The notes below the pieces were generated by a model. That model did no database searches and had not been told where the DNA came from. It was given only the letters and a program-made list of their open reading frames with translations. Shown here piece by piece: positions 3,825 through 27,443 of a stretch of 32,702 bases of DNA (the first letter of the stretch is position 1; every line of letters begins with the position of its first letter). The DNA lies in assembly GCA_964196605.1 (NCBI GenBank), contig CAXMUQ010000247.1:1-32702 (forward strand), in the 5' to 3' direction. The stretch is from an uncultured Acidimicrobiia bacterium (GTDB lineage: Bacteria; Gemmatimonadota; Gemmatimonadetes; Gemmatimonadales; GWC2-71-9). Both the position numbers and the translations under genes were made by a program.

Positions 3825-4499
3825 TTAGCTCGTGGTTCCCACGAGGCCGGCCGCCTGCCTCATGAGCACGAGTTTTTGTCGCATCGTTGCTGCCAAGTGG
3901 TCCTGCAAATAACCGTTGGCAGGGTCCGCGGCGATGGCTTTTTGTGCCTGTTCGATGGCCCGGTCGATTATGGCCAGGTTAGTCTCTAGAATACCAATTG
4001 TGGTGCTATCCAATTCCCCGCGGCCAGCCTCGAGGATCTGCTGCAGTTCAACCAGTGCCTGGTTGACGGCCACCCGGCTGCCCGGGGTGGTCACCTGAAG
4101 GACCGGAAGGTCCGAGCCCGGAAGCCGCGGAGCGTCACTGGCCGGGCCGGATACCAAGAACCGTCCGACGGAGCCTGACAGGATGACCAAGGCGATGCCC
4201 GCAGCGATGAGTTGCGGGATAGTGAAGCTGATTCGTCGCGAATGCTGCCTTTGTGCTGTCGGAAGATGGTAAATGCCGTCCCCTCCAACAGAGATCCTGC
4301 CGGCGATGCCCTGCCACAGGTCCGATGTTGGCGGCGTGTCGGTCAGGGCGCTCGCTTCGGTAACGACGGTCCGCAGGTCGGCGAACACCACTCGGCACTC
4401 CGCACAATCGACCAAGTGGCGTTCGACAGCCTGCCGGTCGGGAGCGGGCAGCGTCCCGTCTATGTACTCCGATAACTTTGAGGTCCACAGATCTGCCAT
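3825..4499 (-). CDS. Anti-sigma factor, zf-HC2 type, single-pass membrane protein
   Basis: The N-terminus LSEYIDGTLPAPDRQAVERHLVDCAECR matches the H-x3-C-x2-C zinc-binding anti-sigma motif. There is one hydrophobic span (IPQLIAAGIALVILSGSV). It starts 11 nt after the stop of the ECF sigma gene. Confidence 0.8.
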   Translation of the reverse strand: MADLWTSKLSEYIDGTLPAPDRQAVERHLVDCAECRVVFADLRTVVTEASALTDTPPTSDLWQGIAGRISVGGDGIYHLPTAQRQHSRRISFTIPQLIAAGIALVILSGSVGRFLVSGPASDAPRLPGSDLPVLQVTTPGSRVAVNQALVELQQILEAGRGELDSTTIGILETNLAIIDRAIEQAQKAIAADPANGYLQDHLAATMRQKLVLMRQAAGLVGTTS

Positions 4500-4510: not shown

Positions 4511-5086
4511 TCAGCGTGTCAGGTGCTCACGGAGCGCCATACGCGCCCGGTGCAATTGTGATTTTGATGTTCCCTCAGCCAGACCCAGCATCGTTGCTAT
4601 CTCCTCATGGCGGTAGCCCTCGACGTCGTGCAGCACGAATACCTGGCGGGCTCCTTTGGGCAGGTGGGTAAGCGCCTGTTCCAGGTCCATCCCCGCGGCC
4701 GGCTCTGAGCTGCGGCTCGGCATCGTCTGCAGCGGGGCCTCACTCTCTACGAACCGCTTCCTTTGCTGTCCCAAGGTTCCTCGGCGGGCGAGGATGACGT
4801 TGACTGCCAACCGGTGGAGCCATGTTCCGAATGCCGCTTCACCCCTGAAGGTGTGCAACTTTTCCCACGCGCGAACGAAAACGTCTTGGGTTACTTCATC
4901 CGCCAGCTCGAAGTCGATCATCCGCCGGGCCAGACTGTGGACTCGGTCCACGTGCCGGTGGTACAATCGCTCGAAGGCGGAGGCGTCCCCGCTCGCGGCC
5001 AAGGCCACTTCGACGGCGTCCTGATTGATAGCGGTGGTGCGTTGCTGTTTGGTCAGAGCCCCGGCTCCACGGCTAAAGACATCCAT
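4511..5086 (-). CDS. ECF-type RNA polymerase sigma-70 family factor
   Basis: Region 2 (AFERLYHRHVDRVHSLARRM...DVTQDVFVRAWEKLHTFRGEAAFGTWLHRLAVN) and region 4 (LPKGARQVFVLHDVEGYRHEEIATMLGLAEGTSKSQLHRAR). Upstream on the minus strand there is a possible extended -10, TGGTACAAT (+ coordinates 5143..5151), with TTGGCC 17 nt upstream. Confidence 0.9.
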   Translation of the reverse strand: MDVFSRGAGALTKQQRTTAINQDAVEVALAASGDASAFERLYHRHVDRVHSLARRMIDFELADEVTQDVFVRAWEKLHTFRGEAAFGTWLHRLAVNVILARRGTLGQQRKRFVESEAPLQTMPSRSSEPAAGMDLEQALTHLPKGARQVFVLHDVEGYRHEEIATMLGLAEGTSKSQLHRARMALREHLTR

Positions 5087-9966: not shown

Positions 9967-10649
<683 letters not shown>

Positions 10650-10666
10650 CACCGTGGAGAGGCTCC

Positions 10667-11815
10667 ATGCTGCATTGCCAACGGGACGCTTTCCAGCTTC
10701 CCGCAGACGCGCACTACCTCAATTGTGCTTTCATGTCACCTCTCATGCGCAGCGTGGAGAACGCCGGCGTGGAGGGTATCCGCCAGAAGCGCAATCCGGC
10801 CGACATCCGCCCGGCCGACTTCTTTGATGAGGTGAACCGGGTTAGAGGCCTGTTCGCCCAGTTGATCAAGGCTGGGGACCCGACTCGGGTTGCGGTGGTT
10901 CCGTCCGCGTCCTACGGCCTCACCGCTGCAGCGCGCAATCTGCCCATGGCAGCGGGACAGACGGTGGTTGTGGCGGCCGGGCAGATGCCGTCGAACATGT
11001 ATTGCTGGCGCAGGATCGCTACCGAACGGCAGGGTCACGTGTACACTGTCGCTGCCCCGGTCGGAGGTGACAAGACGTTCACCGAAGCCATCATCGACGC
11101 CATCGACGAACGAACGGCGGTGGTGGCGTTGGGTACGGTGCACTGGTTCGACGGGCGCCGTTTCGACGTCGAGGCCATCGCCGATAGAGCAAGGGCCGTG
11201 GGAGCCAACTTGGTACTCGACGGCACCCAGTCGATCGGGGCCGTGCCGTTCGACGTGGAACGGATCCGTCCCGCCGCCGTGGTGGCGTCGTGCTACAAGT
11301 GGTTGTTGGGGCCGTATTCGGTAACCCTCGCCTGGTACGGTCCCGAGATGGACGGTGGTGTTCCGCTGGAGGAAATCTGGCTGGCGCGGCCCGGTAGTGA
11401 CGATTTCTCCCGGCTGGCTGAGTACAACGACAATTTCAGGCCGGGTGCGGCGCGCTACGATGTGGGCGAGACCAGCAACTTCGCGCTCATGCCGATGGTG
11501 CGCGCCGCGCTTGAGCAATTGGTGGAATGGTCGGTCGAGGAGGTGGCGGCCTACTGTGGTGGTTTAACGGACGAGATCGTTACGGCCTCGGAACGGTTGG
11601 GATATGACATGATCAACGCGCGGGAGCGATCGCCGCACATCGTCGGGATCCGCCTGAGGTCCGACGCTCAAGGTCTGGGGTTAGCTGACGCTCTAGACCT
11701 GAGGAACGTGCAGGTGTCAGTTCGGGGGGATGCAGTACGTGTGTCGCCGCATGTGTACAATGATCGGGGGGATATCGAGGCGTTGGTGGATGCGATGGAG
11801 GCGGCGAGCTCCTAG
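10667..11815 (+). CDS. Class V aminotransferase-fold PLP-dependent enzyme (cysteine desulfurase / Sec-lyase-like superfamily; substrate unknown)
   Basis: HYLNCAFMSPL at the N-terminus, VALGTVHWFDGRRFD, LVLDGTQSIGAVP, and a candidate PLP lysine in SCYKWLLGPY. I chose the ATG at 10667, preceded by GGAGA, over the ORF-track start at 10511, which overlaps the regulator gene. Confidence 0.8.
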   Translation: MLHCQRDAFQLPADAHYLNCAFMSPLMRSVENAGVEGIRQKRNPADIRPADFFDEVNRVRGLFAQLIKAGDPTRVAVVPSASYGLTAAARNLPMAAGQTVVVAAGQMPSNMYCWRRIATERQGHVYTVAAPVGGDKTFTEAIIDAIDERTAVVALGTVHWFDGRRFDVEAIADRARAVGANLVLDGTQSIGAVPFDVERIRPAAVVASCYKWLLGPYSVTLAWYGPEMDGGVPLEEIWLARPGSDDFSRLAEYNDNFRPGAARYDVGETSNFALMPMVRAALEQLVEWSVEEVAAYCGGLTDEIVTASERLGYDMINARERSPHIVGIRLRSDAQGLGLADALDLRNVQVSVRGDAVRVSPHVYNDRGDIEALVDAMEAASS

Positions 11816-11837
11816 TGTGTCGTCGGCAATGTGGCAC

Positions 11838-11857
11838 GGGCGACGGATGTGTCGCCC
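11838..11857. terminator. Hairpin between convergent genes
   Basis: GGGCGAC (11838..11844) pairs with GTCGCCC (11851..11857) around a 6-nt loop, in the 42-nt gap between the stops at 11815 (+) and 11858 (-). No T-run. Confidence 0.3.
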
Positions 11858-12979
11858 CTACGCGGGCCATTGCTGGGTAAGGCAATGGAAGCTTCCCAGG
11901 CCCCAGGCCAGGTCGGTAGAGGGTATTAGGGCAATGCGGCGGGTTGGGAAGCACTGTTGCAGCACGGTGCGGGCGATCTCATCGCGATCCGGATCGTAGG
12001 CTGGGACCAATACCACGCCGTTGGCGATGTAGAAGTTGGCGTAGCTGGCAGGCAGTCTCTCTCCGTCGTGATATACCGGCCGCGGCATTGGCAACTCGAC
12101 GATGCGAAGAGGATTGCCGTCCTGATCCGTCATAGCCTCCAGACGTTCGCGATTGTTCCTGAGGGTGTGATAATTCACGTCTGCGGGGTCGTCCTCGACT
12201 GCGGTAACTACGGTTGAAGGACCGACGAATCGGGTGAGGTCATCCACGTGCCCGTCAGTGTCGTCACCGGCAATCCCGTCACCCAACCAGAGAATGTGTT
12301 CGACGTTGAAGTAGTTTTTAAGGGTTTGTTCGATGTCCGCCTTGGTGTGGTTAGGATTACGGTTGGGGTTGAGTAGGCAGGATTCGGTGGTCAGCAGGGT
12401 CCCGGCACCGTTGACGTCGATGGAGCCACCTTCCATGACCAGGCCGGGCACGAAACGACGCAGGCCATGGTGGCCGGCAATTCTGCCCGGAATGGCGTTG
12501 TCGTTTTCGAATGGCGGATACTTGCCACCCCACGAGTTGTACTCCCAATCGAGGACCGCCTCCTCGGATCGTCCGTCTACCACGCGCTGGAGAAAAATGG
12601 GGCCGTGGTCCCTGGCCCAAGCGTCGTCCGTGGGGAAGTGATGGAACACGACCCTGTCCTGCGCGACGCCGGCACGCGCCAGTAGGCTGCGCACGTCCGC
12701 CTCCATGTCGGGTCCGGTGACGTTGAGGTAGACGTGCTCGTGGGGGACCAGGGTCGCGACGACTTGTACGAAGATGGGCGGGATTCTATCGAAGATTCCC
12801 GGCCAGGACGACTCACGGTGCAGCCAGCTGAGCCACGTCCCCCGATGGGGTGCCCATTCGGGCGGCATGTGAAACCCCAGGTCCGCCGGGGTAGGGGCAG
12901 GAGCCGGGCCGGTCAATCGCGGAAACGGCGCCCGAGGTCCTGATAGGCGTCGATACGGCGGTCCCGGAGGAACGGCCAA
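11858..12979 (-). CDS. aguA: Agmatine deiminase (peptidyl-arginine deiminase, Porphyromonas type family)
   Basis: GFHMPPEWAPHRGTWLSW, DDAWARDHGPIF, WGGKY, EGGSIDVNGAGTLLTTE, the ending GSFHCLTQQ (catalytic Cys) and the overall length. The start is uncertain. The ATG at 12979 gives a 67-nt overlap with aguB. The TTG at 12916 gives a 4-nt TTGA overlap with the aguB stop and still retains the conserved N-terminus. Confidence 0.85.
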   Translation of the reverse strand: MAVPPGPPYRRLSGPRAPFPRLTGPAPAPTPADLGFHMPPEWAPHRGTWLSWLHRESSWPGIFDRIPPIFVQVVATLVPHEHVYLNVTGPDMEADVRSLLARAGVAQDRVVFHHFPTDDAWARDHGPIFLQRVVDGRSEEAVLDWEYNSWGGKYPPFENDNAIPGRIAGHHGLRRFVPGLVMEGGSIDVNGAGTLLTTESCLLNPNRNPNHTKADIEQTLKNYFNVEHILWLGDGIAGDDTDGHVDDLTRFVGPSTVVTAVEDDPADVNYHTLRNNRERLEAMTDQDGNPLRIVELPMPRPVYHDGERLPASYANFYIANGVVLVPAYDPDRDEIARTVLQQCFPTRRIALIPSTDLAWGLGSFHCLTQQWPA

Positions 12980-13806
12980 TGGGTTCTAGCCTGCTCGACG
13001 GCGGAGAGGTCACAGGGGACAACCAGGACTTCCGGTTCTTGCCCGGCCTTGGCCAACACGTTGCCGTAGGGATCCGCTACGAAGCTTCTACCCCAGAACT
13101 CAATGCCGCCACCATCCGACGGCTCGAGCCCCACCCGGTTGGCGGCGACAACGTACACGCCGTTTGCTACCGCGTGACTGCGTTGCATAGTTTCCCAGGC
13201 CATATGTTGGGATTCACCATACTCGGCTTTTTCCTTCGGGAGCCAGCCGATGGCGGTGGGATAGAACAGGATGTGGGCGCCGCCCATGGCGGTCAGCCGA
13301 GCCGCCTCAGGGTACCACTGATCCCAGCAGATCAGCACACCGATCCGGCCGTAGCGAGTGTTCCAGGTAGGGAATCCCAGGTCGCCCGGCGTGAAGTAGA
13401 ACTTCTCGTGGAACTGTGGGTCGTCGGGGATGTGCATTTTCCGGTACTTGCCGAGTAACGATCCGTCGGCGTCGAGCACCGCGGCGGTATTGTGGTAGAG
13501 ACCCTCGGCTCGACGTTCGAAGAGCGACGCCACGAGGACCACCTCGAGTTCACGAGCCAATGGGCTCAGCTGTTCGGTGGTGGGTCCAGGTACCGGCTCG
13601 GCCAGCTGGAAGTTGGCGTGGTCTTCAGCTTGACAGAAGTACCGGGAGCGGAACAGCTCCTGGAGACAGATGATCTGCGCCCCCCGGGCGGCGGCGGAAC
13701 GAATGCCATCGAGAGCGCGTTCAGTGTTATGATCGACGTCGGTGGAGCAGGGCGATTGAACCAGTCCCACCGTCACGGTGCCGGGGGCAGGTGGGTGGGG
13801 TATCAT
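12913..13806 (-). CDS. aguB: N-carbamoylputrescine amidase (carbon-nitrogen hydrolase family)
   Basis: Nitrilase-superfamily motifs: QELF (catalytic Glu region), YRKMHIPD (Lys) and VLICWDQWYPE (Cys). I chose the ATG at 13806 (MIPHPPAPGTVTVGLVQ) over the longer ORF-track start at 13863. Confidence 0.88.
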   Translation of the reverse strand: MIPHPPAPGTVTVGLVQSPCSTDVDHNTERALDGIRSAAARGAQIICLQELFRSRYFCQAEDHANFQLAEPVPGPTTEQLSPLARELEVVLVASLFERRAEGLYHNTAAVLDADGSLLGKYRKMHIPDDPQFHEKFYFTPGDLGFPTWNTRYGRIGVLICWDQWYPEAARLTAMGGAHILFYPTAIGWLPKEKAEYGESQHMAWETMQRSHAVANGVYVVAANRVGLEPSDGGGIEFWGRSFVADPYGNVLAKAGQEPEVLVVPCDLSAVEQARTHWPFLRDRRIDAYQDLGRRFRD

Positions 13807-13861
13807 AGCTGCGTAGTATAATGACCGTGCGCATCTGCGCCACGCCAACGGGGAAGAAAGC

Positions 13862-14329
13862 ATGCCACAGCCGATCTATGTTTGCGAGGCCACCATCCGC
13901 CGCTGGGAGGGCCCGAACCGGACGGTACGTCTCCCGGGGGCCTCCGAGGACATTTCCTTTGGGGTTCATGGGGCCATCGCCCAACACTACGGGCTCGACT
14001 CGATGGATGGACATCGACCGAACGCGACGACGATCGACTACGTCATTGCGGCGGCGGGTGGCTGACTCACCGGCACTTTTGCTGGCGCGCTGGAAGCGCG
14101 CGGGATTTCTCTGGGGCCGGAAGACATATACGGGGACGTGCGCGGTGAGGTCGAGTTGGATGACGGGGTATTGGTGATCAAGCGGATTCACGTTGCCTAC
14201 CGACTCAGGGTGGCGGAAGAACACCGCGTGGTTGCCGAGCGGGTGTTAGGCGTTCACGCCGACAAGTGTCCGGTCGCGAGGAGTATTGCAGGGGCGATCG
14301 GGATTACGACGGGGATCGAGTACCTGTAG
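13862..14329 (+). CDS. OsmC/Ohr-family peroxidase-like protein with an in-frame TGA (14063..14065) at the catalytic-Cys position; candidate selenoprotein (155 codons including the TGA)
   Basis: ORF-track pieces 13862..14065 and 14138..14329 share one frame, and I translated the gap by hand. The result is ...NATTIDYVIAAAGG[TGA]LTGTFAGALEARGISLGPEDIYGDVRGEVELDDGVLVIKRIHVAYRL...HADKCPVARSI.... This mirrors E. coli OsmC NPEELIGAAHAAC(59)FSMAL... and ...KAGC(125)PVSQ. It would be a pseudogene if the TGA is not recoded. Confidence 0.7.
14085..14101 (+). promoter_or_regulatory. SECIS-like hairpin downstream of the OsmC-family TGA
   Basis: GCGCGC (14085..14090), loop UGGAA (14091..14095), GCGCGC (14096..14101). 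The stem starts 19 nt after the UGA. A possible outer helix pairs CCGGC (14070..14074) with GCCGG (14116..14120). Folded by eye only. Confidence 0.4.
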
Positions 14330-14362
14330 GTGCGTACTACGCACGTCGCACAACGCACATGC

Positions 14363-16045
<1,683 letters not shown>

Positions 16046-16102
16046 GGGCGGGGAAGATACCACCGCCTGTGGTATGCAACCAACCCAAAACCGAGGCACG
16101 CA

Positions 16103-16672
16103 ATGCGAAGCTGGCTTGTCGTTCTGTTAGGCGTTGTGGCAGTGCTAGTCCCCCGGGCGGATCTGCCGGCCCAGGAAAACACTCCGCTAGACATAGAGGC
16201 GGAGGCTCCCACCTTTGCGCTTCCGGGGGCAACGGCTAAAGGAATCCTGCCGCATGACGTCAGCTTGGCCGACTTCAAAGGCAAGACGGTGGTTCTGGCC
16301 TTCTTCTACAAGGCCCGGACCAAGGGCTGAACTATCCAAATGCGCGCGTACCGTGATCAGTACGCGGAAATATTTGGAGAGCGGAATGACGTGGTGCTGC
16401 TGGCCATCAGCCGAGATAGCCCTGAAGCGTTGTCGTCGTGGGCCCAGGATGAGGGATTCGAGTTTCGCATGTTGAGTGACGCGGACGGCGCTGTGGGGAA
16501 GGCGTATGGGGCTGTGACCTCCGATGACAGGCTCGACAACCGGAATCTTTTCATTGTCGATGGGGAAGGGCTTGTCGCCCACCGGATGGTTCCCTTCCGA
16601 GAGGTAGATCCTACGGCCTACACCGACCTGGCTGATGCAATCCTGCAAGTGGCTGGTGCGCCAGCTGACTAG
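16103..16672 (+). CDS. Secreted AhpC/TSA (BCP-like) peroxiredoxin with an in-frame TGA (16328..16330) at the peroxidatic-Cys position; candidate selenoprotein
   Basis: ORF-track pieces 16031..16330 and 16340..16672 are in the same frame. Read-through gives ...FKGKTVVLAFFYKARTKG[TGA]TIQMRAYRDQYAEIFGERNDVVLLAISRDSPEALSSWAQDEGFEFRMLSDADGAVGKAYGA.... This aligns by eye with E. coli BCP RVLVYFYPKAMTPGC(45)TVQACGLRD...VLGISTD...FTLLSD...FGV, so T-x-x-[TGA]-T-x-Q corresponds to T-x-x-C-T-x-Q. The start is the ATG at 16103, with signal-like MRSWLVVLLGVVAVLV. Confidence 0.75.
16345..16366 (+). promoter_or_regulatory. SECIS-like hairpin downstream of the peroxiredoxin TGA
   Basis: CGCGUAC (16345..16351) pairs with GUACGCG (16360..16366), giving 7 bp around the 8-nt loop CGUGAUCA. 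The stem starts 14 nt after the UGA. Folded by eye only. Confidence 0.4.
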
Positions 16673-16681
16673 CACTTCTGG

Positions 16682-17938
16682 TCAGGTATCGAGGATCGCC
16701 TCGATCTCCTCCAATCGTCCGTCGATCTCAACGACCCGGGAATCCCGGGCCGTATTCGCAGCCAGGGGCTCTTTTAGGAGGTGCCCCGTCAGGACCGCTA
16801 CGACGCTGTCGTCTTCGCCGATAATCGCGTCGTGTCGCAGGCGTTTCACGCCGGCAACTGCCGCGGCACTGGCCGCCTCACAGCCAACACCGGAGCGGTC
16901 CACTACCGCCTTGGCCTCCAGGATTTCCTGGTCGGTCACGGTGGTCACCAGGCCGTTGGTTGCGCGGATAGCCCGCACGGCCCGGTCGAACGACGCCGGG
17001 TTGCCGATCCGAATGGCGGTGGCGACCGTGTCGGCGACGACTGGCTCGAGTTGTGAAAAACCCGCTGCATAGCTGTGGGCGAACGGCGCGGCACCTTCTG
17101 CCTGTACCGCCGCCAAACGAGGGAGACGGGAGATGAGCCCTGCGCGGAGCGCAGTGCTCAGGGCCCGCCCGAACGCAGAGGTATTGCCCAGATTGCCGGC
17201 TGGGAACACGATCCAATCCGGGGGCTCCCACCGCAGTTGGTGCAGCAGTTCGAGTATGATGGTCTGCTGACCGGCAATACGATACGGGTTGACCGAATTG
17301 AGCAAATAGAGTCCGAAGCGGTCCGCCGCCTGTTCCACCAGTTCGAGGCAGCGGTCGAAGTCTCCGCGAACGGCCACTGTTTGCGCCCCGTATGCTATCG
17401 ACTGGGCACGTTTCTCCGGTGTTACCCTGCCGGTAGGCACCAGTACCAGAGCCTGCAACCCGGCACGGGCGGCGTAGGCGGCAAGGGACGCAGCTGTGTT
17501 CCCGGTTGATGCACAAGCCACGTGCCGGGCACCTAGAAGGACGGCTTGGGTAATACCGACCGTCATGCCCCGGTCCTTGAATGATCCTGTCGGGTTCTGC
17601 CCCTCGTGTTTTAAGGTGAGCCGGTCCGTTTCCGTCCACCGTGCGATGGTGTCCGAAAAGATCAGGGGTGTATTCCCCTCCGGATAGCTGGTGGGTGCAT
17701 CGGTTGGCCGCGGGAGGATCAACTCTCGGTAGCGCCAGACACCGGAAATGTCGACAACGTCCCGTCCGGTGAGGCGAGTCTCGAACCGAGATCGCAGATC
17801 CGCACCAGTCCAAGGGGGAATAGGAACTTCGAGATCGAGGAGTCCACCGCAGCTGCACCGCTGATTGGTGGCTGATGCTCCATAGACCCGGCCGCATGCC
17901 GGGCAGACCAGGCCCATCACCGAAGTTGTAGGGGCCAC
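16682..17938 (-). CDS. thrC: Threonine synthase (with N-terminal Cys-rich zinc-ribbon-like segment)
   Basis: EGNTPL, GSFKDRGM (PLP Lys), ASTGNTAASLAAYAA and the overall length. The N-terminus CPACG...CSCGG is present. The GTG start overlaps the thrB stop by 1 nt (TAGTG). Confidence 0.93.
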   Translation of the reverse strand: MAPTTSVMGLVCPACGRVYGASATNQRCSCGGLLDLEVPIPPWTGADLRSRFETRLTGRDVVDISGVWRYRELILPRPTDAPTSYPEGNTPLIFSDTIARWTETDRLTLKHEGQNPTGSFKDRGMTVGITQAVLLGARHVACASTGNTAASLAAYAARAGLQALVLVPTGRVTPEKRAQSIAYGAQTVAVRGDFDRCLELVEQAADRFGLYLLNSVNPYRIAGQQTIILELLHQLRWEPPDWIVFPAGNLGNTSAFGRALSTALRAGLISRLPRLAAVQAEGAAPFAHSYAAGFSQLEPVVADTVATAIRIGNPASFDRAVRAIRATNGLVTTVTDQEILEAKAVVDRSGVGCEAASAAAVAGVKRLRHDAIIGEDDSVVAVLTGHLLKEPLAANTARDSRVVEIDGRLEEIEAILDT

Positions 17939-18894
17939 TAAGTCTCCGGGGCTACCAAGCTCGCTTCAGGGACGAGACGGGCACCGAGGTGATCGACGTG
18001 CGTTACCCTGGTAGAGCAATCAAAGCCCGCCTTGCTGTAAGCGTGCGCCATGGCCTCGGCAATGCTCTGTCCACTGCTCTCCGTGTGCGCCAACGCGAAG
18101 GCACTGGGGCCGCTGCCGGAAACCGAAACTCCCAGGGCGCCAGCTTCGAGCGCAGCTGCTTTGGCTTCGCGGAAACCGGGGAGGAGTTGGGCCCGCGAAG
18201 GTTCGGCGATTCGGTCGTCGATGGCCCGTCCCAGGAGGGCCAGGTCTCGTTGGTAGCAGGCCGCAACAAGAGCACCCACCTGGGCCGCTTGGTGCATGGC
18301 GATGACCAATGGGATGCTGTCCGGGATACAAGACCTGCCCACGCTAGTCTCCAGCTGATAATCGGGCAGCGCCAGTACCATGCGGAGATTGGGGGGCACC
18401 GGCAACTTGACTATCTCCAGCGGTTGCTCGGAACGGACAAGTACCAAGCCGCCAAAGAGAGATGCGGCCACGTTGTCGATACACCTTCCCGATACTTTCT
18501 CCTCGGCAGTGAGGCACGCCTTTACCACACCAGTCGGCCACAGCGGGTTGTGGAGCAAGCCGTTGGTCGCCACCGCAGCCGCCACGGCCGAAGCAGCACT
18601 CCCGCCTTGGCCTGCCGTCAAGGAAAGGCCCTTTCGCACAGTCAGCTCGATGCCGGTCTCATCTTGCACACCAGCGAGTTTGAGTACTTCGGCGGCGGCA
18701 ATGGCGGCGGTGTGCCATTCGGGATCCGTAGGCAGGTCGGCGTGACCAGGGTCCTTGATACTCACTCCCGGCTCGTCCTTGCGTTCGACGATTGCCGTGT
18801 CTCCCCGGCCAGCGATGGCCATACCGAGGATGTCGAATCCCGGACCGACGTTGCCGATGCTTCCTGGCGCGTAGGCGCCAACCCGTTCAGTCAC
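17938..18894 (-). CDS. thrB: Homoserine kinase (GHMP kinase family)
   Basis: APGSIGNVGPGFDILG at the N-terminus and the GHMP motif LSLTAGQGGSAASAVA. GTG start at 18894. Confidence 0.9.
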   Translation of the reverse strand: MTERVGAYAPGSIGNVGPGFDILGMAIAGRGDTAIVERKDEPGVSIKDPGHADLPTDPEWHTAAIAAAEVLKLAGVQDETGIELTVRKGLSLTAGQGGSAASAVAAAVATNGLLHNPLWPTGVVKACLTAEEKVSGRCIDNVAASLFGGLVLVRSEQPLEIVKLPVPPNLRMVLALPDYQLETSVGRSCIPDSIPLVIAMHQAAQVGALVAACYQRDLALLGRAIDDRIAEPSRAQLLPGFREAKAAALEAGALGVSVSGSGPSAFALAHTESSGQSIAEAMAHAYSKAGFDCSTRVTHVDHLGARLVPEASLVAPET

Positions 18895-19732
18895 AGCCGG
18901 GCGACCCGCTTAGGGATAACGGTGGTTCGGCGCAGAGCCGCACTCCGGCCCGCGAGGGTGGGCGGGACGGTATCATATATGACCAAGGATTCATTGCGTT
19001 CGGCGATGCTGATGCTCCTGCGTTCGGTGCAGTCGTTGGTCCAAGCACGCCACTCGTGCCGTCTCGGCGATCACCCCTCCAGAACACATCCCGGTCGTAC
19101 CTTCGTTGTAACCTGCTGTTCACACCCGTCGGCTGTGCCTGGTAGACCAGTACTCGACTATGTGGGGGCAACGCCCTAGCGCCGCGGGCTGTAGACCGGA
19201 GCCTACAATATTCTGATTCTCGCACCGTTGGGTTGCGACGAGTACGATTTTCCCGGGAAGCATCGTCCGTGGTGCGAGCCTCGGCTTTCCCAATCTATGT
19301 TGTCCGTGGAGCCGGCGTGGCCCGCTAGCTGATCCTCTGCCACTCCAAGAGTCTACAAGTCTATATACTACAAGATGATGGCTGCCTCGGGCGAGACGCT
19401 GGCAGGGCGCCTCATCTGGCCAGAGTGAGGCATGCCGAACCGCTTCGAGGAGCAGCGCCCAAGGCTCCCTAACTGGCCCTCGGGGCTGCAATCATGGGGT
19501 CAGTTCGCCGAAGGCGCTCCCCCCAGGAAGCTGCGATGCAAGTTCTGGGCTCTGGAGGGCGCCACTACAGGGCTCAGCACCAGTATGGGCTGAGTCTGTC
19601 GACGAGACTAGGTAATCTGCGGTAGCGGGGACAGGACCCTCGAATGGTCTGGAAAAGTTCATACTGATCCTCAACTCCTCTTCATAGTCGAAATGGGTAG
19701 ATTGTCATTTCCGTTTATCACGAGAGAAGCCG

Positions 19733-20842
19733 ATGAAGATCGGGATACCGAAGGAAACTCACCCGGGTGAGCAGCGTGTGGGCCTCATTCCAGCAGCTGC
19801 CGGACGACTCGTCAAGGCAGGGTTTGCAGTGGCTGTGGAGCAGGGGGCCGGTGAGTCGGCCGGGTTCCCCGACCACAGCTATGCCGACGCCGGGGTCACC
19901 ATGGTAGGGCCAGGAGCTCTGAGTGATGCCGAGCTGATTTTGAAGGTGCAGCCTCCGACGCTCGACGAGGCAGGCGGGTATCCCGAAGGCAGCGTACTCG
20001 TGGCGTTGCTCCAGCCGGGGCGACTAGACGATGTGTACTCCGAGTTAGGCCGGCGTAACATCACGGCCTTCGCCATGGAACTGGTGCCGCGGACCACCAA
20101 GGCGCAGTCGATGGACGTGCTGTCCTCCCAGGCAACCGTGGCTGGATACAAGGCAGTGCTCGTCGCCGCGTCCGAACAGGGCAAGCTCCTGCCCATGCTA
20201 ACGACGGCGGCGGGCACACTGGCACCGGCCAAGGTATTCATCATCGGGGCCGGCGTCGCAGGACTTCAGGCCATCGCTACCGCGCGCCGATTGGGAGGAA
20301 TAGTTTCGGCGTTCGACGTTCGGCCGGTGGTACGCGAACAGGTCGAAAGTCTGGGCGCTTCCTTCATAGAAGCGGAAGCTGTGGAGGAAGCGGAAGGCGC
20401 CGGTGGGTATGCCAAGGAACTCGCCGAGGAGCAACAGGAGAAGGTACTCGCCGCCATCGCGGGTCATGTGCCGGACATGGACGTGGTCATAACCACGGCG
20501 CAGATCCCGGGCAAGCAGGCTCCAGTGCTGATTACCGAGCAAATGGTGCAGTCGATGCAGCCGGGGTCGGTGATCGTCGACCTGGCGGCAGAGACGGGCG
20601 GTAACTGCGCATTGACGCAGGCTGGGGAGACCCTCGTGGTCGGTGGAGTCAAGGTAATCGGGCCCGTCAACCTGCCGGCGACCGTGCCGCTGCACGCCAG
20701 CCAGATGTATAGCAAGAACCTCACGACGTTCGTCGAGTACATCACCGAAGACGGTGCGCTCACGATCGATCTCGATGATCCCATCACCGGACCCATGTGC
20801 GTCGTCGCGAACGGCGAGGTCCGATTCGGGAGAACCACATGA
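19733..20842 (+). CDS. pntAA: NAD(P) transhydrogenase subunit alpha, part 1 (dI domain)
   Basis: MKIGIPKE...E.RV, and the Rossmann motif FIIGAGVAGLQAIATARRLG. It has alanine dehydrogenase/PNT-like architecture. Confidence 0.93.
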   Translation: MKIGIPKETHPGEQRVGLIPAAAGRLVKAGFAVAVEQGAGESAGFPDHSYADAGVTMVGPGALSDAELILKVQPPTLDEAGGYPEGSVLVALLQPGRLDDVYSELGRRNITAFAMELVPRTTKAQSMDVLSSQATVAGYKAVLVAASEQGKLLPMLTTAAGTLAPAKVFIIGAGVAGLQAIATARRLGGIVSAFDVRPVVREQVESLGASFIEAEAVEEAEGAGGYAKELAEEQQEKVLAAIAGHVPDMDVVITTAQIPGKQAPVLITEQMVQSMQPGSVIVDLAAETGGNCALTQAGETLVVGGVKVIGPVNLPATVPLHASQMYSKNLTTFVEYITEDGALTIDLDDPITGPMCVVANGEVRFGRTT

Positions 20843-21132
20843 GCGAAGGCATTATCCTGGGCGTCGTCGTCTTCACTTTGGCGACGTTCCTCGGGTTCGA
20901 GTTGATTCAGCGTGTGCCCCCGACTCTGCACACTCCTCTGATGTCGGGGTCGAATGCCATCAGCGGCATCACCATCGTCGGAGCGTTGATAATCGCCGGC
21001 GGGGACTTTGGTTGGATTTCTCAGTATGTCGGGTTCGGAGCGGTCGTGTTGGCCATGATCAACGTGGTCGGCGGGTATGCCGTTACCAACCGGATGCTGC
21101 AGATGTTCCGCAAAGATCAGGAGGGATCATGA
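20839..21132 (+). CDS. pntAB: NAD(P) transhydrogenase subunit alpha, part 2 (membrane segment)
   Basis: A 97-aa hydrophobic protein with PLMSGSNAISGI and NVVGGY motifs. An ATGA overlap joins it to the pntAA stop. The ORF-track start at 20797 lies inside pntAA and is rejected. Confidence 0.88.
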   Translation: MSEGIILGVVVFTLATFLGFELIQRVPPTLHTPLMSGSNAISGITIVGALIIAGGDFGWISQYVGFGAVVLAMINVVGGYAVTNRMLQMFRKDQEGS

Positions 21133-22523
21133 TGCCGGCCGGCCTGGTGCCTCTGATCTACCTCGTGTCCGCCGCCCTGTTCATCATGGGCCTGAAGCGG
21201 CTGCAGAGCCCCGATACAGCCCGGAACGGCAACATGATGTCCGGCCTCGGCATGCTCATCGCCATTGTGGTCACGCTCCTCGATCAGCAGATCGTGTCGT
21301 TCCAGGTGATAATCGCCGGTGTGGTTGTGGGTGGTGGGCTTGGTTTCTGGATGGCCCGTTCGGTGAAGATGACTTCGATGCCGCAGATGGTAGCGCTGTT
21401 GAACGGTTTCGGTGGTGGAGCGTCGTTGCTGGTGGCCGGCGCCGAGTTCCTCAAGGCAGACATGCTTGGTGTGCCTCTGGCGATCGAGACCAACATCACC
21501 ATTCAGCTAGGAACCTTTATCGGGTCGATCACGCTCATGGGAAGCCTCGTCGCCTTCCTGAAGTTGCAGGAACTGATGAGCGGCAAACCCATGACGTTCC
21601 CCCTCCAGAAGACATTCAACGCGCTGGTGTTTCTCGCCATCGCCGCCCTGGCAGTCTACCAGGTTGTCGTCCCAGGCGATCAGGCAGAGATCTTCTACGC
21701 CATGATCGGGCTGTCGCTAGTGCTCGGCGGGCTGTTGGTGATTCCCATCGGTGGGGCAGACATGCCGGTGGTCATTGCCCTGCTGAATTCCTATTCGGGT
21801 ATCGCCGCGGCAATGACCGGTTTCGTCATCGACAACCAGGTACTCATCGTGGCTGGAGCGTTGGTGGGTTCATCGGGCCTCATCCTGAGCAACATCATGT
21901 GCAAGGCGATGAACCGTTCGCTGGCCAACGTACTGTTCGGCGCGTTCGGTGGGGACAGCGCTGGGGGATCTACCAAGAGTTCTGAAGGTCTGAGCGTCAA
22001 CGAGGTGTCGGTGGAAGACGCTGCGTTGCGCCTGGCGTACGCGCGGCTGGTCATCATCGTGCCGGGTTATGGCCTGGCGGTGGCCCAGGCGCAGCACGTG
22101 GTGCGGGAATTGGCCGATCTCATTCAGAAGAACGGCGGTGAGGTCAAGTACGCCATCCACCCTGTGGCGGGCCGGATGCCCGGCCATATGAACGTGCTGC
22201 TGGCCGAGGCGAACGTGCCCTACGACCAGTTGGTAGAGATGGAGGACATCAATCAGCAGTTCCCTAGGGCCGACGTTGCCTTGGTGATTGGGGCCAACGA
22301 TGTCGTTAATCCGGCGGCTCACAACGATCCATCCAGCCCGATCTACGGCATGCCGATTCTCGACGTGGAGAATGCCCAGAGCACGATTGTCATGAAGCGC
22401 AGCATGAACCCGGGTTTCGCCGGCATCCAGAACGAGTTGTTCTATCATCAAAAGACCTCCATGTTGTTTGGTGACGCGAAGGTATCTCTCTCTGCCCTGG
22501 TGGGTGAGATCAAGTCGCTTTAG
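21129..22523 (+). CDS. pntB: NAD(P) transhydrogenase subunit beta
   Basis: MMPAGLVPLIYLVSAALFIMGLKRL..., a multi-TM N-terminal half, and a C-terminal dIII NADP(H) domain (PGYGLAVAQAQH, YAIHPVAGRMPGHMNVLLAEA, GANDVVNP). An ATGA overlap joins it to the pntAB stop. The 125 extra N-terminal codons in the ORF track are rejected. Confidence 0.93.
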   Translation: MMPAGLVPLIYLVSAALFIMGLKRLQSPDTARNGNMMSGLGMLIAIVVTLLDQQIVSFQVIIAGVVVGGGLGFWMARSVKMTSMPQMVALLNGFGGGASLLVAGAEFLKADMLGVPLAIETNITIQLGTFIGSITLMGSLVAFLKLQELMSGKPMTFPLQKTFNALVFLAIAALAVYQVVVPGDQAEIFYAMIGLSLVLGGLLVIPIGGADMPVVIALLNSYSGIAAAMTGFVIDNQVLIVAGALVGSSGLILSNIMCKAMNRSLANVLFGAFGGDSAGGSTKSSEGLSVNEVSVEDAALRLAYARLVIIVPGYGLAVAQAQHVVRELADLIQKNGGEVKYAIHPVAGRMPGHMNVLLAEANVPYDQLVEMEDINQQFPRADVALVIGANDVVNPAAHNDPSSPIYGMPILDVENAQSTIVMKRSMNPGFAGIQNELFYHQKTSMLFGDAKVSLSALVGEIKSL

Positions 22524-22538
22524 TCGAGGAGTACGGAA

Positions 22539-23183
22539 ATGCGGATTCTCGGAATTACGGTCCTAGCCGCCGCCATGGCCACGCCCGCCGCGGCCCAGAA
22601 CGCCTGTGATGCCTTTCTAGAGGCCCCTCCCGTGGGGGCCTGGGTTGAGTACGATTTCCAGGGACAGGGGCAGGCCGGGCGTTCGAGGATTGCTGTGGTC
22701 GGCACCGAAACCCGGAATGGGGAAGAGCTCACCTGGTACGAAATGAGCTTCGACGCAGGGGGCCAGAGCGGAGGCGTGAAGATGTTGGGCGAGGGCGGGG
22801 TCTATCGCGCCATGGCCGAAAAGAACATCGTTGAGATGGTGGTCAAGGCCGCAGGACAGCCTGCCATGAAGTTCTCTGGTGCAATGATAGAGCGTATGCA
22901 GAGCCAGATGAACTCGGATCCGGCCGCGGAGTTCGGCAAGGGGTGTGAAAGCGCCGAGCGTGTTGGTGTCGAGTCGATCACGGTACCTGCTGGCACCTTC
23001 GACGCGGTGCACTATCGCCTGACAAGCGGCCAGAAACCCGGTGACGCCTGGATCGTCGAGGGATTGCCCTTGGGGATGATCAAATGGACCGGGTCGGGCG
23101 ACGAAGGCGTCGAGCTGGTCGACCGGGGGGACGATGCCGTCACCCAGATCACCGAGACCCCGATGGAAATTCCCGGCGGCTGA
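22539..23183 (+). CDS. Hypothetical secreted protein (no family recognised)
   Basis: Signal peptide MRILGITVLAAAMATPAAAQ and non-biased composition. It starts 15 nt after the pntB stop on the same strand. Confidence 0.6.
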   Translation: MRILGITVLAAAMATPAAAQNACDAFLEAPPVGAWVEYDFQGQGQAGRSRIAVVGTETRNGEELTWYEMSFDAGGQSGGVKMLGEGGVYRAMAEKNIVEMVVKAAGQPAMKFSGAMIERMQSQMNSDPAAEFGKGCESAERVGVESITVPAGTFDAVHYRLTSGQKPGDAWIVEGLPLGMIKWTGSGDEGVELVDRGDDAVTQITETPMEIPGG

Positions 23184-23500
23184 TCAGGCGCGGTCTTTCG
23201 CGAACCAAAATTCCCTTTCCAGCGTTCAGGTAGTAACCGGCGGAGCCCTCAATGGGCTCTCGTCGGCCGGGGGCATTCCAATAACCGTGGTGGGCCACGC
23301 AGTTTTCGATGAGTGGTGTGCACTCTGGGGCGATTGGCGCCTCTTCCCTTATGTAGTCCAGCGGGCTTGCAGTTGCACATTGCAACGTTTGGAGATGCCA
23401 CCATTTCGTGGTTCCAAACATCATAAAGTGTAGTAGGGCGTTGGGTGCCCAATTGGCAGGTGTGGGGGCAAGTGGTGGCGTTGAAGGGGTTACTAAAGTA

Positions 23501-23529
23501 TTGAATCTTTGGGAGTTAGCTGTTATATT
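23501..23529 (+). promoter_or_regulatory. Putative sigma-70-type promoter for the downstream sigma-factor gene
   Basis: TTGAAT (23501..23506), a 17-nt spacer, then TATATT (23524..23529), about 80 nt upstream of the GTG at 23610. Sequence match only. Confidence 0.4.
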
Positions 23530-23609
23530 CCTGATTGGCTTTGCCCTTTTCGTTTGGCGGGAAGGTTACTCATAGATCGGCGCGTTCTTCGCGCAAGGAG
23601 ACGAACACG

Positions 23610-24506
23610 GTGACAATTACGAAACCTCGCCCGAAGCGCCGTGCCGTACGGCCTGCGCTAATTGCTCGAGCGGTGGACGAAGGCCGTGAGAGTCTGGACC
23701 TCTACCTCGACGAAATCAGCCGGGTGCCGCTCCTCACGCGGGAGCAAGAAATGGCGCTTGCCCGGAAAGCCTTCGGTGGCGACGTCGTGGCCCAGGAGAG
23801 TCTAGCTCGTCACAATGTGCGCTTCGTGGTTTCAGTAGCGAAGAAGTTCCAGAACCGGGGAGTGCCGTTGGTCGATCTGATCGGCGAAGGCAACCTCGGC
23901 CTGATGACTGCGGCCAGGAAGTTCGATCCCGACCGTGGCGTGAAGTTCATTTCTTATGCTGTGTGGTGGATCCGCCAGGCGGTACAGGCAGCCATTGCGC
24001 GGCACGGCCGTCCAGTGCGTGTGCCTCTCAACCGTACGGCCGACCTGAGCCGGTTGGGCCGGACCACGACTTTGTTGAAGGAAAAACTGGGCCGTATGCC
24101 GACTACAGAAGAGTTGGCTGAAGCAACCGGGCTCACGCTGGAGGCGGTTCGCAGCCTCAGCGCTTTGAACTCGGAGGCCGTGCGTCTCGATCACCCGACC
24201 CGCGATGGCGACGGACACGAGCGCATCGAACGGTTCGCCTCAGCGGATCAGGAAGGGACGGACACGAGCACGATTCTCAACAGCCGGACCGAGGGAATCG
24301 ACAAAGCTCTCACTACTCTTCCTCCGCGTGATGCCAAGGTGCTGCGGCTCTACTTCGGGTTGGAAGACGGCAACAGCCGGACGCTCGAGGAAATCGGCCG
24401 GATGATGGGAGTCACCCGCGAGCGCATTAGGCAACTGCGCGACCGGGCGCTCCTCCGTCTCCGGGACGGCGAGACCGGCGAGCATCTGAAAGACCTGGTT
24501 GCCTGA
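23610..24506 (+). CDS. Sigma-70 family RNA polymerase sigma factor, short RpoD/RpoS-like (regions 1.2, 2, 3 and 4; no long region 1.1)
   Basis: LDLYLDEISRVPLLTREQE (region 1.2), NVRFVVSVAKKFQNRGVPLVDLIGEGNLGLMTAARKFDPDRGVKFISYAVWWIRQA (region 2), and LEEIGRMMGVTRERIRQLRDRAL (region 4.2). I chose the GTG at 23610, preceded by AAGGAG (23595..23600). The ORF track begins at 23535. Confidence 0.88.
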   Translation: MTITKPRPKRRAVRPALIARAVDEGRESLDLYLDEISRVPLLTREQEMALARKAFGGDVVAQESLARHNVRFVVSVAKKFQNRGVPLVDLIGEGNLGLMTAARKFDPDRGVKFISYAVWWIRQAVQAAIARHGRPVRVPLNRTADLSRLGRTTTLLKEKLGRMPTTEELAEATGLTLEAVRSLSALNSEAVRLDHPTRDGDGHERIERFASADQEGTDTSTILNSRTEGIDKALTTLPPRDAKVLRLYFGLEDGNSRTLEEIGRMMGVTRERIRQLRDRALLRLRDGETGEHLKDLVA

Positions 24507-24530
24507 TCCAGGACACCAGAGACAAGAAAA

Positions 24531-24562
24531 ATGGCCCTCCATTCGGAGGGCCATTTTTTTTG
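24531..24562. terminator. Rho-independent terminator, probably bidirectional
   Basis: ATGGCCCTCC (24531..24540), loop ATTC, GGAGGGCCAT (24545..24554), followed by T8 (24555..24562) and preceded by A5. It sits between the sigma-factor stop (24506, +) and the acnA stop (24585, -). Confidence 0.8.
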
Positions 24563-24584
24563 GCTGTCGGAGTTCGGCTATCAG

Positions 24585-27377
<2,793 letters not shown>

Positions 27378-27443
27378 TATGATACCCGATAATACGCGGT
27401 TCATGGATGTGCGTGTCGAGTCTAATTATACACCGGAGCCGGA

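Follow-up and report, generated by a model that had tools for sequence, protein, structure and literature searches.

The OsmC-like gene and its catalytic column

The window (the whole 32,702-nucleotide stretch of DNA that was analysed) carries an OsmC-like gene with a single in-frame TGA. Its features are as follows.

13862..14329, + strand: OsmC-like gene, almost certainly encoding a selenoprotein; 155 codons plus a TAG stop, Sec at codon 67
14063..14065, + strand: UGA read as Sec67 at the peroxidatic-Cys position, judged from same-column TGA in homologues, Cys in others and OsmC structures
14085..14101, + strand: SECIS-type hairpin GCGCGCU-GGA-AGCGCGC, 7 bp with a G-containing apical loop, lying in the codons for G-A-L-E-A-R
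14267..14269, + strand: TGT codon of Cys136, a putative resolving Cys in HADKCPVARS, invariant in homologues

In an ORF reading of the window, ORFs 13862..14065 and 14138..14329 lie in the same frame, and the sole stop between the ATG at 13862 and the TAG at 14327..14329 is the TGA at 14063..14065. Read-through of 13862..14329 gave a 155-residue protein, with the residues ...IDYVIAAAGG[TGA]LTGTFAGALEARGI... around the TGA and the peptide ...DYVIAAAGG-U-LTGTFAGALEAR across codon 67. The first-pass annotation had described a shared frame with a lone TGA interruption, a 155-codon product and the context IDYVIAAAGG[TGA], and the translation agreed on each point; in all, eight statements of that annotation were examined and all eight held up.

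The 155-residue product matched the Pfam OsmC family PF02566 over residues 56-150 (E=4.1e-11; 43.6 bits, cut-off 27.5). Scores with the NCBIfam OsmC and SACOL1771 models were far under their cut-offs, and NCBIfam held no model specific to this type of gene. Full-length homologues measured 154-165 aa, with the alignment beginning at Met1, and bear the JGI label 'uncharacterized OsmC-like protein'. At the N-terminal end the subfamily has a motif of its own, FGVH..A.HY, in which His36 and His42 are invariant.

Profile alignments placed the TGA column on the first Cys of T. thermophilus OsmC 1UKK (AAAHAGCFSMAL) and of 2ONF, 2PN2 and 2OPL. Cys136, invariant in alignments A1, A2, A4 and A5, fell on the second Cys of 1UKK, 2ONF, 2PN2, 2OPL and OhrB 2BJO. 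The two redox positions of the OsmC/Ohr superfamily are present: Sec67 and Cys136 pair with the two Cys of 1UKK and of 2PN2, and their counterparts in 2ONF, 2OPL and 2BJO were matched too. The earlier claims that the TGA occupies the family's catalytic Cys and that a second Cys is kept in HADKCPVARS were both upheld. In the first PDB profile search, a local alignment to OhrB through the common FGGALE motif fell 4 residues off relative to the Cys; this offset was rejected as a local artefact, as 1UKK, 2ONF, 2PN2 and 2OPL all put their Cys on the TGA column.

Fold was assessed on the Cys homologue P0023, which is 52% identical to the window protein. The column Cys of its AF2 model (pLDDT 96, pTM 0.88) lies within helix 56-78. 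The top 50 Foldseek matches in the PDB were all OsmC/Ohr proteins (E down to 8e-9), with TM up to 0.76 by query length and 0.86 by target length. The modelled homologue points to membership of the window protein in the OsmC/Ohr fold.

Conservation of the TGA and of the downstream hairpin

A TGA at exactly the Sec67 column was found in 82/82 fetched homologous loci, which span at least 10 phyla. Both flanks were conserved, with invariant residues on either side of the TGA in protein alignments, and neither half contained frameshifts. Taxa with the TGA form include Gemmatimonadota, Acidobacteriota, Chloroflexota, Desulfobacterales, Anaeromyxobacter, NC10, Acidimicrobiia, Rubrobacteraceae, Haloechinothrix halophila, Egicoccus, Latescibacterota, Poribacteria and Binatia. 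One homologue, L003, is carried on the complete Gemmatimonadales chromosome OZ252291.1. Such conservation across species of a UGA together with both flanking coding regions is characteristic of selenoprotein genes.

Among the 120 best listed homologues, 29 carried Cys at the Sec67 column, in keeping with its assignment as the peroxidatic-Cys column, and at least 27 were ~88-aa fragments beginning one codon past it. TGA-free homologues had Cys there, never Trp or Gly, and the TGC or TGT codon was verified in the DNA of L083-L086. The column thus shows the Sec/Cys pairing at a functionally important position by which bacterial selenoprotein genes are recognized.

The hairpin at 14085..14101 starts 19 nt after the UGA and was both the MFE and the centroid hairpin. 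The loop lies 26 nt from the UGA, a spacing that the bSECISearch model allows (16-37 nt). The same hairpin was the consensus structure of 81 sequences: 98.6% of the pair cells were paired, changes were wobble-compatible only, and the loop read GG(A/G/C). Loop position 3 was variable, with E, G or A encoded, while the stem was constant. The gene therefore has a stem-loop just 3' of the UGA with a small, G-containing apical loop, as selenoprotein genes do.

Single-sequence stability of the hairpin was unremarkable for this GC-rich window (z = -1.6 to -1.7). There were no double-sided compensatory changes, and covariation statistics gave no information on a stem with so little variation; synonymous-site entropy was therefore used in their place. 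At four-fold degenerate third positions, codons +7, +8, +9 and +11 had 0.45, 0.09, 0.16 and 0.09 bits, and the 27 other four-fold sites had 1.0-2.0 bits. Synonymous freezing was confined to the hairpin (exact rank test, p=3.2e-5). Three distant Cys forms were without the hairpin (-1.1, -2.7 and -3.9 kcal/mol, compared to -11.2). The closest Cys form, L083 (Pyrinomonadaceae, TGT), kept an identical hairpin, and the hairpin is therefore not strictly tied to the TGA. Its conservation and G-containing loop make it a candidate SelB-type signal. A GC hairpin at this place, 19 nt past the UGA, had been picked out in the first-pass annotation; folding recovered it as the MFE structure, with GGA as the loop, and the folding check was favourable in its comparative part as well, with the hairpin conserved and the synonymous sites frozen.

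Neighbouring peroxiredoxin, Sec machinery and alternative readings

A peroxiredoxin gene lies 2 kb from the OsmC-like gene on the same contig, and has an in-frame TGA of its own.

16103..16672, + strand: secreted BCP/PrxQ-type peroxiredoxin, a separate gene (Pfam AhpC-TSA E=1.4e-28 across the TGA)
16328..16330, + strand: in-frame TGA at the peroxidatic Cys, in the motif T-K-G-U
16345..16366, + strand: 22-nt hairpin CGCGUAC-CGUGAUCA-GUACGCG

The peroxiredoxin hairpin has a 7-bp stem and an 8-nt loop, begins 14 nt after the UGA, and was 100% identical in the window and 5 aligned relatives. Six metagenome relatives (52-76% identity) all had TGA at the same column; more distant relatives had TGA or TGC/TGT. 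A homologue of the peroxiredoxin was absent from the OsmC loci examined, and the two genes are therefore not a conserved pair. The presence of a second Sec-type gene 2 kb away provides organism-level support for the Sec reading. Further in-frame-TGA candidates from a window-wide scan, the GC3 filter of which also missed the peroxiredoxin, were antisense or adjacent-gene artefacts only, such as the tandem DUF4097 genes at 2157..2927 and 2958..3809.

No selA, selB, selD or tRNA-Sec gene was present within the 32.7-kb window, where Rfam at gathering thresholds and ARAGORN recovered neither a tRNA-Sec nor any catalogued RNA family. Across 86 loci (1.25 Mb), ARAGORN picked up 11 tRNAs but no tRNA-Sec. 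Scanning 168 loci plus the window (1.65 Mb) for SelA, SelD and SelB motifs yielded a single selB, in the Solibacteraceae MAG L019 (Acidobacteriota); it is a genuine selB, since its product has the winged-helix domains of SelB, and it lies 2.9 kb from the OsmC homologue. A literature search found nothing specific on selenocysteine use in Gemmatimonadota.

Four other explanations of the TGA were weighed. It is very unlikely that the UGA is recoded or read through without selenium, either by reassignment of TGA to Trp or Gly or by near-cognate Trp or Cys at a leaky UGA-C. Metagenome gene callers rendered the codon as W in 47 of the 120 best listed homologues, and C follows the UGA in 80/81 sequences; UGA-C is a weak termination context. 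However, the W translations stem from short contigs, and in P0001, one W homologue that was checked, the DNA codon is TGA. TGA is also the commonest genuine stop in the window, where it ends 14/24 long ORFs, as expected from the first-pass remark that it serves as a normal stop here. Cys as the only residue at this column in TGA-free homologues, the conserved hairpin with its candidate SelB-type loop, and the selB gene close to the homologue in L019 argue further against selenium-free decoding. Some Sec-independent read-through may occur as a side reaction under selenium limitation.

Less probable still is that the locus makes two products. One would be a 66-residue peptide ending at the TGA, with the hairpin and a T-rich tail serving as an intrinsic terminator or attenuator; the other would be a C-terminal fragment translated from its own start. 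A simple terminator scan flagged 14086..14102, followed by GGATTTCTCT, and the GTG at 14138 is a possible start of a 63-aa ORF. The T-rich tail is not conserved, however: most A3 sequences have GAGATCCCGGCC-like tails, whereas the hairpin is invariant. All relatives conserve the codons between 14066 and 14137 at the protein level (LTGTFGGALEAR...), neither half alone amounts to an OsmC fold, and the Sec and Cys active-site residues flank the TGA on opposite sides.

There is scarcely any chance that the gene was inactivated by a TGC/TGT-to-TGA nonsense change and is now decaying. Only one base change would be needed, and gene callers do report two fragments: the OsmC-like gene is called as 67-aa and 63-aa products on a near-identical JGI contig and as adjacent fragment pairs in GenBank, the split that the first-pass annotation had foreseen. 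Against this, the same TGA stands in every fetched locus with both halves conserved and free of frameshifts; decay among the closest relatives, which had been named as a point against a selenoprotein, was not seen. In L087, an independent JGI assembly with 99.1% identity to the window and 170 mismatches in 18.8 kb, the gene shows 3 base differences, 1 amino-acid change and a retained TGA. Comparative sequence data have in effect already refuted the pseudogene reading. A sequencing or assembly error at 14063..14065, with TGC or TGT as the real codon, is equally hard to credit, as nothing specific favours it beyond the general possibility with metagenome contigs, the TGA is universal among relatives, and L087 keeps the TGA of the OsmC-like gene as well as that of the peroxiredoxin gene.

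The TGA at 14063..14065 is almost certainly read as selenocysteine. It is the comparative evidence that carries weight here: TGA stands at this column in all 82 further loci, and synonymous sites are frozen nowhere but in the hairpin. We conclude with high confidence that 13862..14329 is one intact selenoprotein gene of the OsmC/Ohr fold in which the codon-67 UGA is decoded as selenocysteine. Two "hypothetical" fragments in the source genome would accordingly become one predicted redox enzyme. Many public copies are split into ~66-aa and ~88-aa fragments or carry Trp at the active site, and a dedicated model (conserved UGA plus 17-nt hairpin) would mend many annotations. Together with the nearby Sec-peroxiredoxin, the OsmC-like gene suggests a role for selenocysteine in the peroxide defence of the organism, which is probably related to Gemmatimonadota.

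Proposed mechanism and relation to known systems

In the mechanism we propose, UGA codon 67 would be decoded as selenocysteine through the bacterial Sec pathway, in which an mRNA hairpin directly 3' of the UGA recruits SelB loaded with Sec-tRNA(Sec). The 17-nt hairpin at 14085..14101, within the coding sequence, would be the recruiting element. Sec67 is predicted to sit on the long central helix, at the place of the peroxidatic Cys of OsmC/Ohr enzymes, and Cys136 at that of their resolving Cys. The selenolate would reduce a hydroperoxide (or carry out another redox step) and then form a selenenylsulfide with Cys136, to be re-reduced by a cellular thiol system. We infer Sec insertion, the organism's Sec machinery, the peroxidase activity, the substrate and the reductant from these features.

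The 'OsmC-like protein' has been a catalogued selenoprotein family since 2005, when Zhang, Fomenko and Gladyshev described it from the Sargasso Sea (COG1765/PF02566; PMC1088965), and OsmC-like selenoproteins also appear in 2022 and 2026 reviews (PMC9312934; PMC13188914). The first-pass statement that selenoproteome catalogues include OsmC-like proteins was correct (PMC1088965; PMC13188914), and the gene at 13862..14329 is a fresh example of this already listed family. It shares with the catalogued members an OsmC-family domain, assigned by Pfam PF02566, predicted Sec in place of the first redox Cys, the existence of Cys homologues, and a candidate bacterial-type SECIS directly downstream with G in a small apical loop, the form described for bacterial SECIS elements (PMC1088965). 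It differs in the residues after Sec. The published motif of OsmC-like selenoproteins is UxxT (PMC1088965), whereas the window protein reads U-L-T-G-T, where positions +2 and +4 are Thr and +3 is Gly; the window protein and all relatives fit U-L/M-T/V/A-G-T, in which Gly +3 and Thr +4 are constant. The published UxxT may denote a sister subfamily or may be a loosely written motif.

We tentatively raise the possibility that the U-L-T-G-T proteins are a separate subfamily from the catalogued UxxT proteins, unrecognised as yet and marked by a near-invariant 17-nt minimal SECIS; the distinction is drawn from the published motif, and the published representatives AACY01145085, MCS5647933.1 and MBR72571.1 were not among the cluster members listed. 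If this proposal is true, the subfamily would rank with the most widely distributed selenoproteins in phyla of soil and sediment (Gemmatimonadota, Acidobacteriota, Chloroflexota, Actinomycetota, NC10 and Desulfobacterota); its genes are systematically annotated by standard pipelines as two fragments or with Trp. A 17-nt SECIS, GCGCGCUGGARGCGCGY, common across phyla would then imply unusually strict SelB recognition or repeated horizontal transfer. A 2007 Olavius study gave OsmC-like selenoproteins as not detected; in contrast, a later assembly of the Olavius Delta 1 symbiont (L054) carries the TGA form.

Similar to the OsmC/Ohr thiol peroxidases (E. coli OsmC 1QWI/1NYE, 1UKK, and Ohr 1ZB9/1USP/6ECY), the window protein has the predicted fold (TM 0.6-0.76 for P0023) and two redox residues, the first on a long helix and the second in C-P-V/x-x-R/K-S. 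Sequence identity to these enzymes is only 10-17%, however; the window protein would have Sec for the peroxidatic Cys, and the FGVH..A.HY motif belongs to its own subfamily. Sec-containing peroxiredoxins (Prx), catalogued with the motif TxxU (PMC1088965 Table 3), likewise have the peroxidatic Cys replaced by Sec and the SECIS inside the coding sequence, and the window holds a candidate of this kind at 16103..16672. Their fold is that of thioredoxin rather than OsmC, and the hairpin of the window's peroxiredoxin gene is unlike the one at 14085..14101.

As in the SECIS of E. coli fdhF, the window hairpin lies just 3' of the UGA, within the ORF, and has G in the apical loop. It differs in being very short and perfectly paired (7 bp, with a 3-nt GGA, GGG or GGC loop), with no bulged U seen, and in the distance of its stem base from the UGA, which is 19 nt compared to 11 nt in the minimal fdhF element. 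Such a short, invariant and widespread hairpin would be a handy natural minimal SECIS for work on SelB recognition beyond Proteobacteria and Firmicutes.

The OsmC-like gene and its in-frame TGA

The first-pass annotation had described an OsmC-like frame with a single TGA, a 155-residue read-through product and a downstream hairpin, and all of these are present in the window DNA. The gene stands as a single unit, and its surroundings are as follows.

Features at the OsmC-like gene
13862..14329, + strand: OsmC-like gene, ATG 13862 to TAG 14327..14329, one frame with TGA 14063..14065 as its sole interruption
14085..14101, + strand: hairpin GCGCGCU-GGA-AGCGCGC, beginning 19 nt past the UGA
12913..13806, - strand: carbon-nitrogen hydrolase, member of a polyamine pair, divergent from the OsmC-like gene
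11858..12979, - strand: agmatine deiminase, member of the same pair, divergent from the OsmC-like gene
14363..16099, - strand: ABC-F ATPase, convergent with the OsmC-like gene

The translation, with the TGA counted among its 155 residues, reads MPQPIYV...IDYVIAAAGG*LTGTFAGALEARGI...HADKCPVARS...IEYL. With Cys placed at the TGA, it matched Pfam OsmC PF02566 (E=4.1e-11; 43.6 bits, threshold 27.5) over residues 56-150, across the TGA.

A search of 5.8 billion proteins returned 366 matches, and the TGA column was read in the best 120. Among these 120, full-length proteins carried Cys (29, e.g. Pyrinomonadaceae, Tenacibaculum, Pontimicrobium) or 'W' (47) at the column, and at least 27 matches were fragments of about 88 aa starting one codon past it. 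The one 'W' protein checked, P0001, has TGA at this codon in its DNA; 'W' was therefore counted as an artefact, presumably from calling genes on a short contig with TGA=Trp. The ~88-aa fragments represent the C-terminal halves of genes that contain the TGA: upstream of the one from Egicoccus sp. AB-alg2, the frame reads ...DYLVAAAGG[TGA]LTGTFGG.... GenBank holds adjacent accession pairs in which a 66-aa 'hypothetical protein' precedes an 87-aa 'OsmC family protein' (e.g. MFZ0971626.1 and MFZ0971627.1), and no model specific to the OsmC-like TGA family was found in NCBIfam. Public annotation of this family, as 'W' proteins or fragments (matches P0001-P0120 and P0121-P0134), is systematically wrong.

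A genome scan with one genome per species yielded 80 OsmC-like loci, or 82 with those of P0001 and Egicoccus, and TGA occupied exactly the same column in 82/82. The flanks were kept both upstream, (A/T)T(L/I)DY(V/I)(V/I)AA..G, and downstream, L(T/V)GTF(G/A)GAL(E/A/G)AR. The closest TGA loci were from Gemmatimonadota (55-61% identity); others came from Acidobacteriota, Chloroflexota, Desulfobacterales, Anaeromyxobacter, NC10/Methylomirabilota, Acidimicrobiia, Rubrobacteraceae, the isolate Haloechinothrix halophila YIM 93223, Latescibacterota, Poribacteria, Binatia and the Olavius Delta 1 symbiont.

Three other explanations of the TGA were weighed. A change of genetic code is opposed by the use of TGA as an ordinary stop, both in the window (14/24 long ORFs) and in L087 (9/17 called genes), a JGI metagenome contig 99.1% identical to window positions 10527..29312. 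With 170 mismatches, L087 comes from a close relative and was assembled independently; its copy of the gene has three base differences and one amino-acid change (Q41R) and keeps the same TGA, which argues against a sequencing or assembly error. A pseudogene is ruled out by the TGA in all 82 loci and because residues on both sides of it are invariant among homologues (P25, H36, A40, T57 and D59 on the 5' side; G71, T72, L77, G95, V103, L104 and C136 on the 3' side).

The hairpin downstream of the UGA

We aligned the TGA and following 60 nt of 81 OsmC-like TGA sequences. The consensus structure was the same 7-bp hairpin (columns 23-29 / 33-39), with 98.6% of pair cells paired. The frequent stem changes (C39->U, A33->G, C24->U) were all wobble-compatible; because no pair had both of its bases altered, classical covariation gives no signal. 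Constraint was visible at synonymous sites. Third-position entropy was 0.45, 0.09, 0.16 and 0.09 bits at hairpin codons +7, +8, +9 and +11, compared with 1.0-2.0 bits at 27 other four-fold sites around the TGA (exact rank test, p=3.2e-5). The third base of codon +10 was A or G alone, either of which pairs with U29, and that of codon +12 was C or U in 82/83, either of which pairs with G23. The loop starts 26 nt past the UGA and has G at positions 1 and 2. Its third base may be A, G or C, giving E, G or A in the protein, while the stem is unchanged; at this point, then, constraint on the RNA exceeds that on the protein.

Three distant Cys forms without the hairpin folded at -1.1, -2.7 and -3.9 kcal/mol, versus -11.2. 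The closest Cys form (L083:1001..1474, a Pyrinomonadaceae MAG, GCA_045807865.1) has TGT at the column and keeps the exact hairpin GCGCGCUGGAGGCGCGC at -11.2 kcal/mol, which looks like a 'fossil SECIS' of a recent Sec-to-Cys switch. A simple terminator scan flagged the hairpin with the window's ATTTCTCT tail; this tail is not maintained across the aligned sequences.

The TGA/Cys column, conserved flanks and constrained hairpin support the selenocysteine reading that the first-pass annotation had proposed, and on this sequence evidence 13862..14329 is very probably a genuine selenoprotein gene. The practical gain is twofold: an annotation error that is widespread can be corrected, and a putative SECIS has emerged that is both very compact and deeply conserved.

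Two further observations concern the alignment. The Egicoccus locus (L002:5998..6060) was the lone sequence with a non-consensus hairpin, GUGCC-CUCGA-GGCAC, shifted 2 nt in register and built from other synonymous codons (GGT GCC CTC GAG GCA CGT); it appears to have been rebuilt rather than lost. The base after the UGA (alignment column 4, window 14066) was C in 80/81, the Leu codon being always CTN and never TTR. UGA-C is a weak termination context, and the pattern could also reflect GC-rich codon bias.

Catalytic column, fold and proposed mechanism

The family profile was aligned to PDB sequences. The TGA column fell on the first Cys of Thermus thermophilus OsmC 1UKK (LIAAAHAGCFSMAL), Ta0195 2ONF (ASCLLTTF), 2PN2 (SLASCML) and 2OPL (ALSGCLTT), and Cys136 (TGT 14267..14269) on the second Cys of 1UKK, 2PN2, 2ONF and OhrB. 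E-values were weak (0.0016-0.4), and the alignments are consistent with one another and with the significant Pfam match. An offset local alignment to OhrB was discounted as driven by the common FGGALE motif. The AlphaFold2 model of P0023, a Cys homologue, had a pLDDT of 96, and its best 50 Foldseek matches in the PDB were all OsmC/Ohr proteins (E down to 8e-9; TM-scores about 0.6-0.86 by normalisation). In this model the column Cys is inside a long helix, residues 56-78; the second Cys lies where helices 118-134 and 136-141 join.

The locus is a single intact gene of the OsmC fold. Its peroxidatic position shows Sec/Cys pairing, and immediately 3' of this position an RNA element is under selection. 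In the proposed mechanism, SelB with Sec-tRNA(Sec) would bind the hairpin and UGA67 would be decoded as Sec. Sec67 may attack peroxide or another oxidised substrate, Cys136 would resolve the intermediate via a selenenylsulfide, and regeneration of the enzyme would fall to a thiol system, either lipoyl protein or thioredoxin. No characterised member of this COG1765-type branch was found.

Neighbouring genes and known selenoproteins

A second TGA-containing gene lies nearby.

16103..16672, + strand: BCP/PrxQ-type peroxiredoxin with signal peptide (Pfam AhpC-TSA, E=1.4e-28)

Its TGA (16328..16330) is at the peroxidatic Cys, in ...FFYKARTKG[TGA]TIQMRAYRDQY..., and the motif T-K-G-U is the known TxxU motif (PMC1088965). 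Six metagenome relatives (52-76% identity) have TGA at this column, and more distant ones have TGA or TGC/TGT. The hairpin CGCGUAC-CGUGAUCA-GUACGCG (16345..16366, 22 nt) showed no base difference between the window and the five aligned relatives. Gene callers cut the gene into 75-aa and 110-aa pieces. This predicted second selenoprotein-type gene gives organism-level support for Sec use. Another pair flagged by the in-frame-TGA scan, the tandem DUF4097 ('toastrack') paralogues at 2157..2927 (-) and 2958..3809 (-), looks more like two separate genes than a case of recoding; they share a frame, with TGA plus 30 nt between them, and both lie downstream of two genes, one for a zf-HC2 anti-sigma factor (3825..4499) and one for an ECF sigma factor (4511..5086).

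No sel genes or tRNA-Sec were found within the window. An uncultured Solibacteraceae MAG carries a true selB (L019:13336..15267, +), whose product has GTP_EFTU, SelB beta-barrel and SelB winged-helix domains 2 and 3. The gene is 2.9 kb from that MAG's OsmC-like TGA gene, on its downstream side, and a thioredoxin/AhpC-like ORF lies between the two. A pntA-type transhydrogenase alpha subunit gene (AlaDH_PNT; 19733..20842, +) lies a few kb from the OsmC-like gene in the window, and a 54-58% identical gene is likewise near it in eight Gemmatimonadota loci (L003, L004, L006, L007, L008, L010, L012, L043). Because this neighbourhood is common to both, it suggests, but does not prove, a Gemmatimonadota-related origin of the window.

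Two other neighbourhoods were observed. In the window, the OsmC-like gene is preceded at 2 kb by a class-V aminotransferase (SufS/CsdA cysteine-desulfurase type; 10511..11815, +), whose family includes selenocysteine lyases. Two Desulfobacterota loci have homologues of this aminotransferase with 41% identity (L016:9714..10844, L044:7122..8282), each about 6 kb away from the OsmC-like gene; the association is weak. At L084:1..960, a Cys-form homologue immediately follows msrA (PMSR) and msrB (SelR), neighbours consistent with a role in oxidative stress or oxidative-damage repair.

'OsmC-like protein' (COG1765, motif UxxT) was a new selenoprotein family, with a predicted SECIS, in the Sargasso Sea study (PMC1088965), and is listed as a selenoprotein in 2022 and 2026 reviews (PMC9312934, PMC13188914). 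This kind of gene is therefore known, and 13862..14329 adds a member to it. The window's motif, U-L-T-G-T, differs from the published UxxT. The 2007 Olavius study did not detect OsmC-like selenoproteins (0 Sec forms, 3 Cys forms), whereas a later Olavius Delta 1 symbiont assembly (L054) carries the OsmC-like TGA form; the 'Putative redox protein', a new family of that study, might be this form. Going by the published descriptions, the U-L-T-G-T motif and the Olavius discrepancy leave room for a distinct subfamily.
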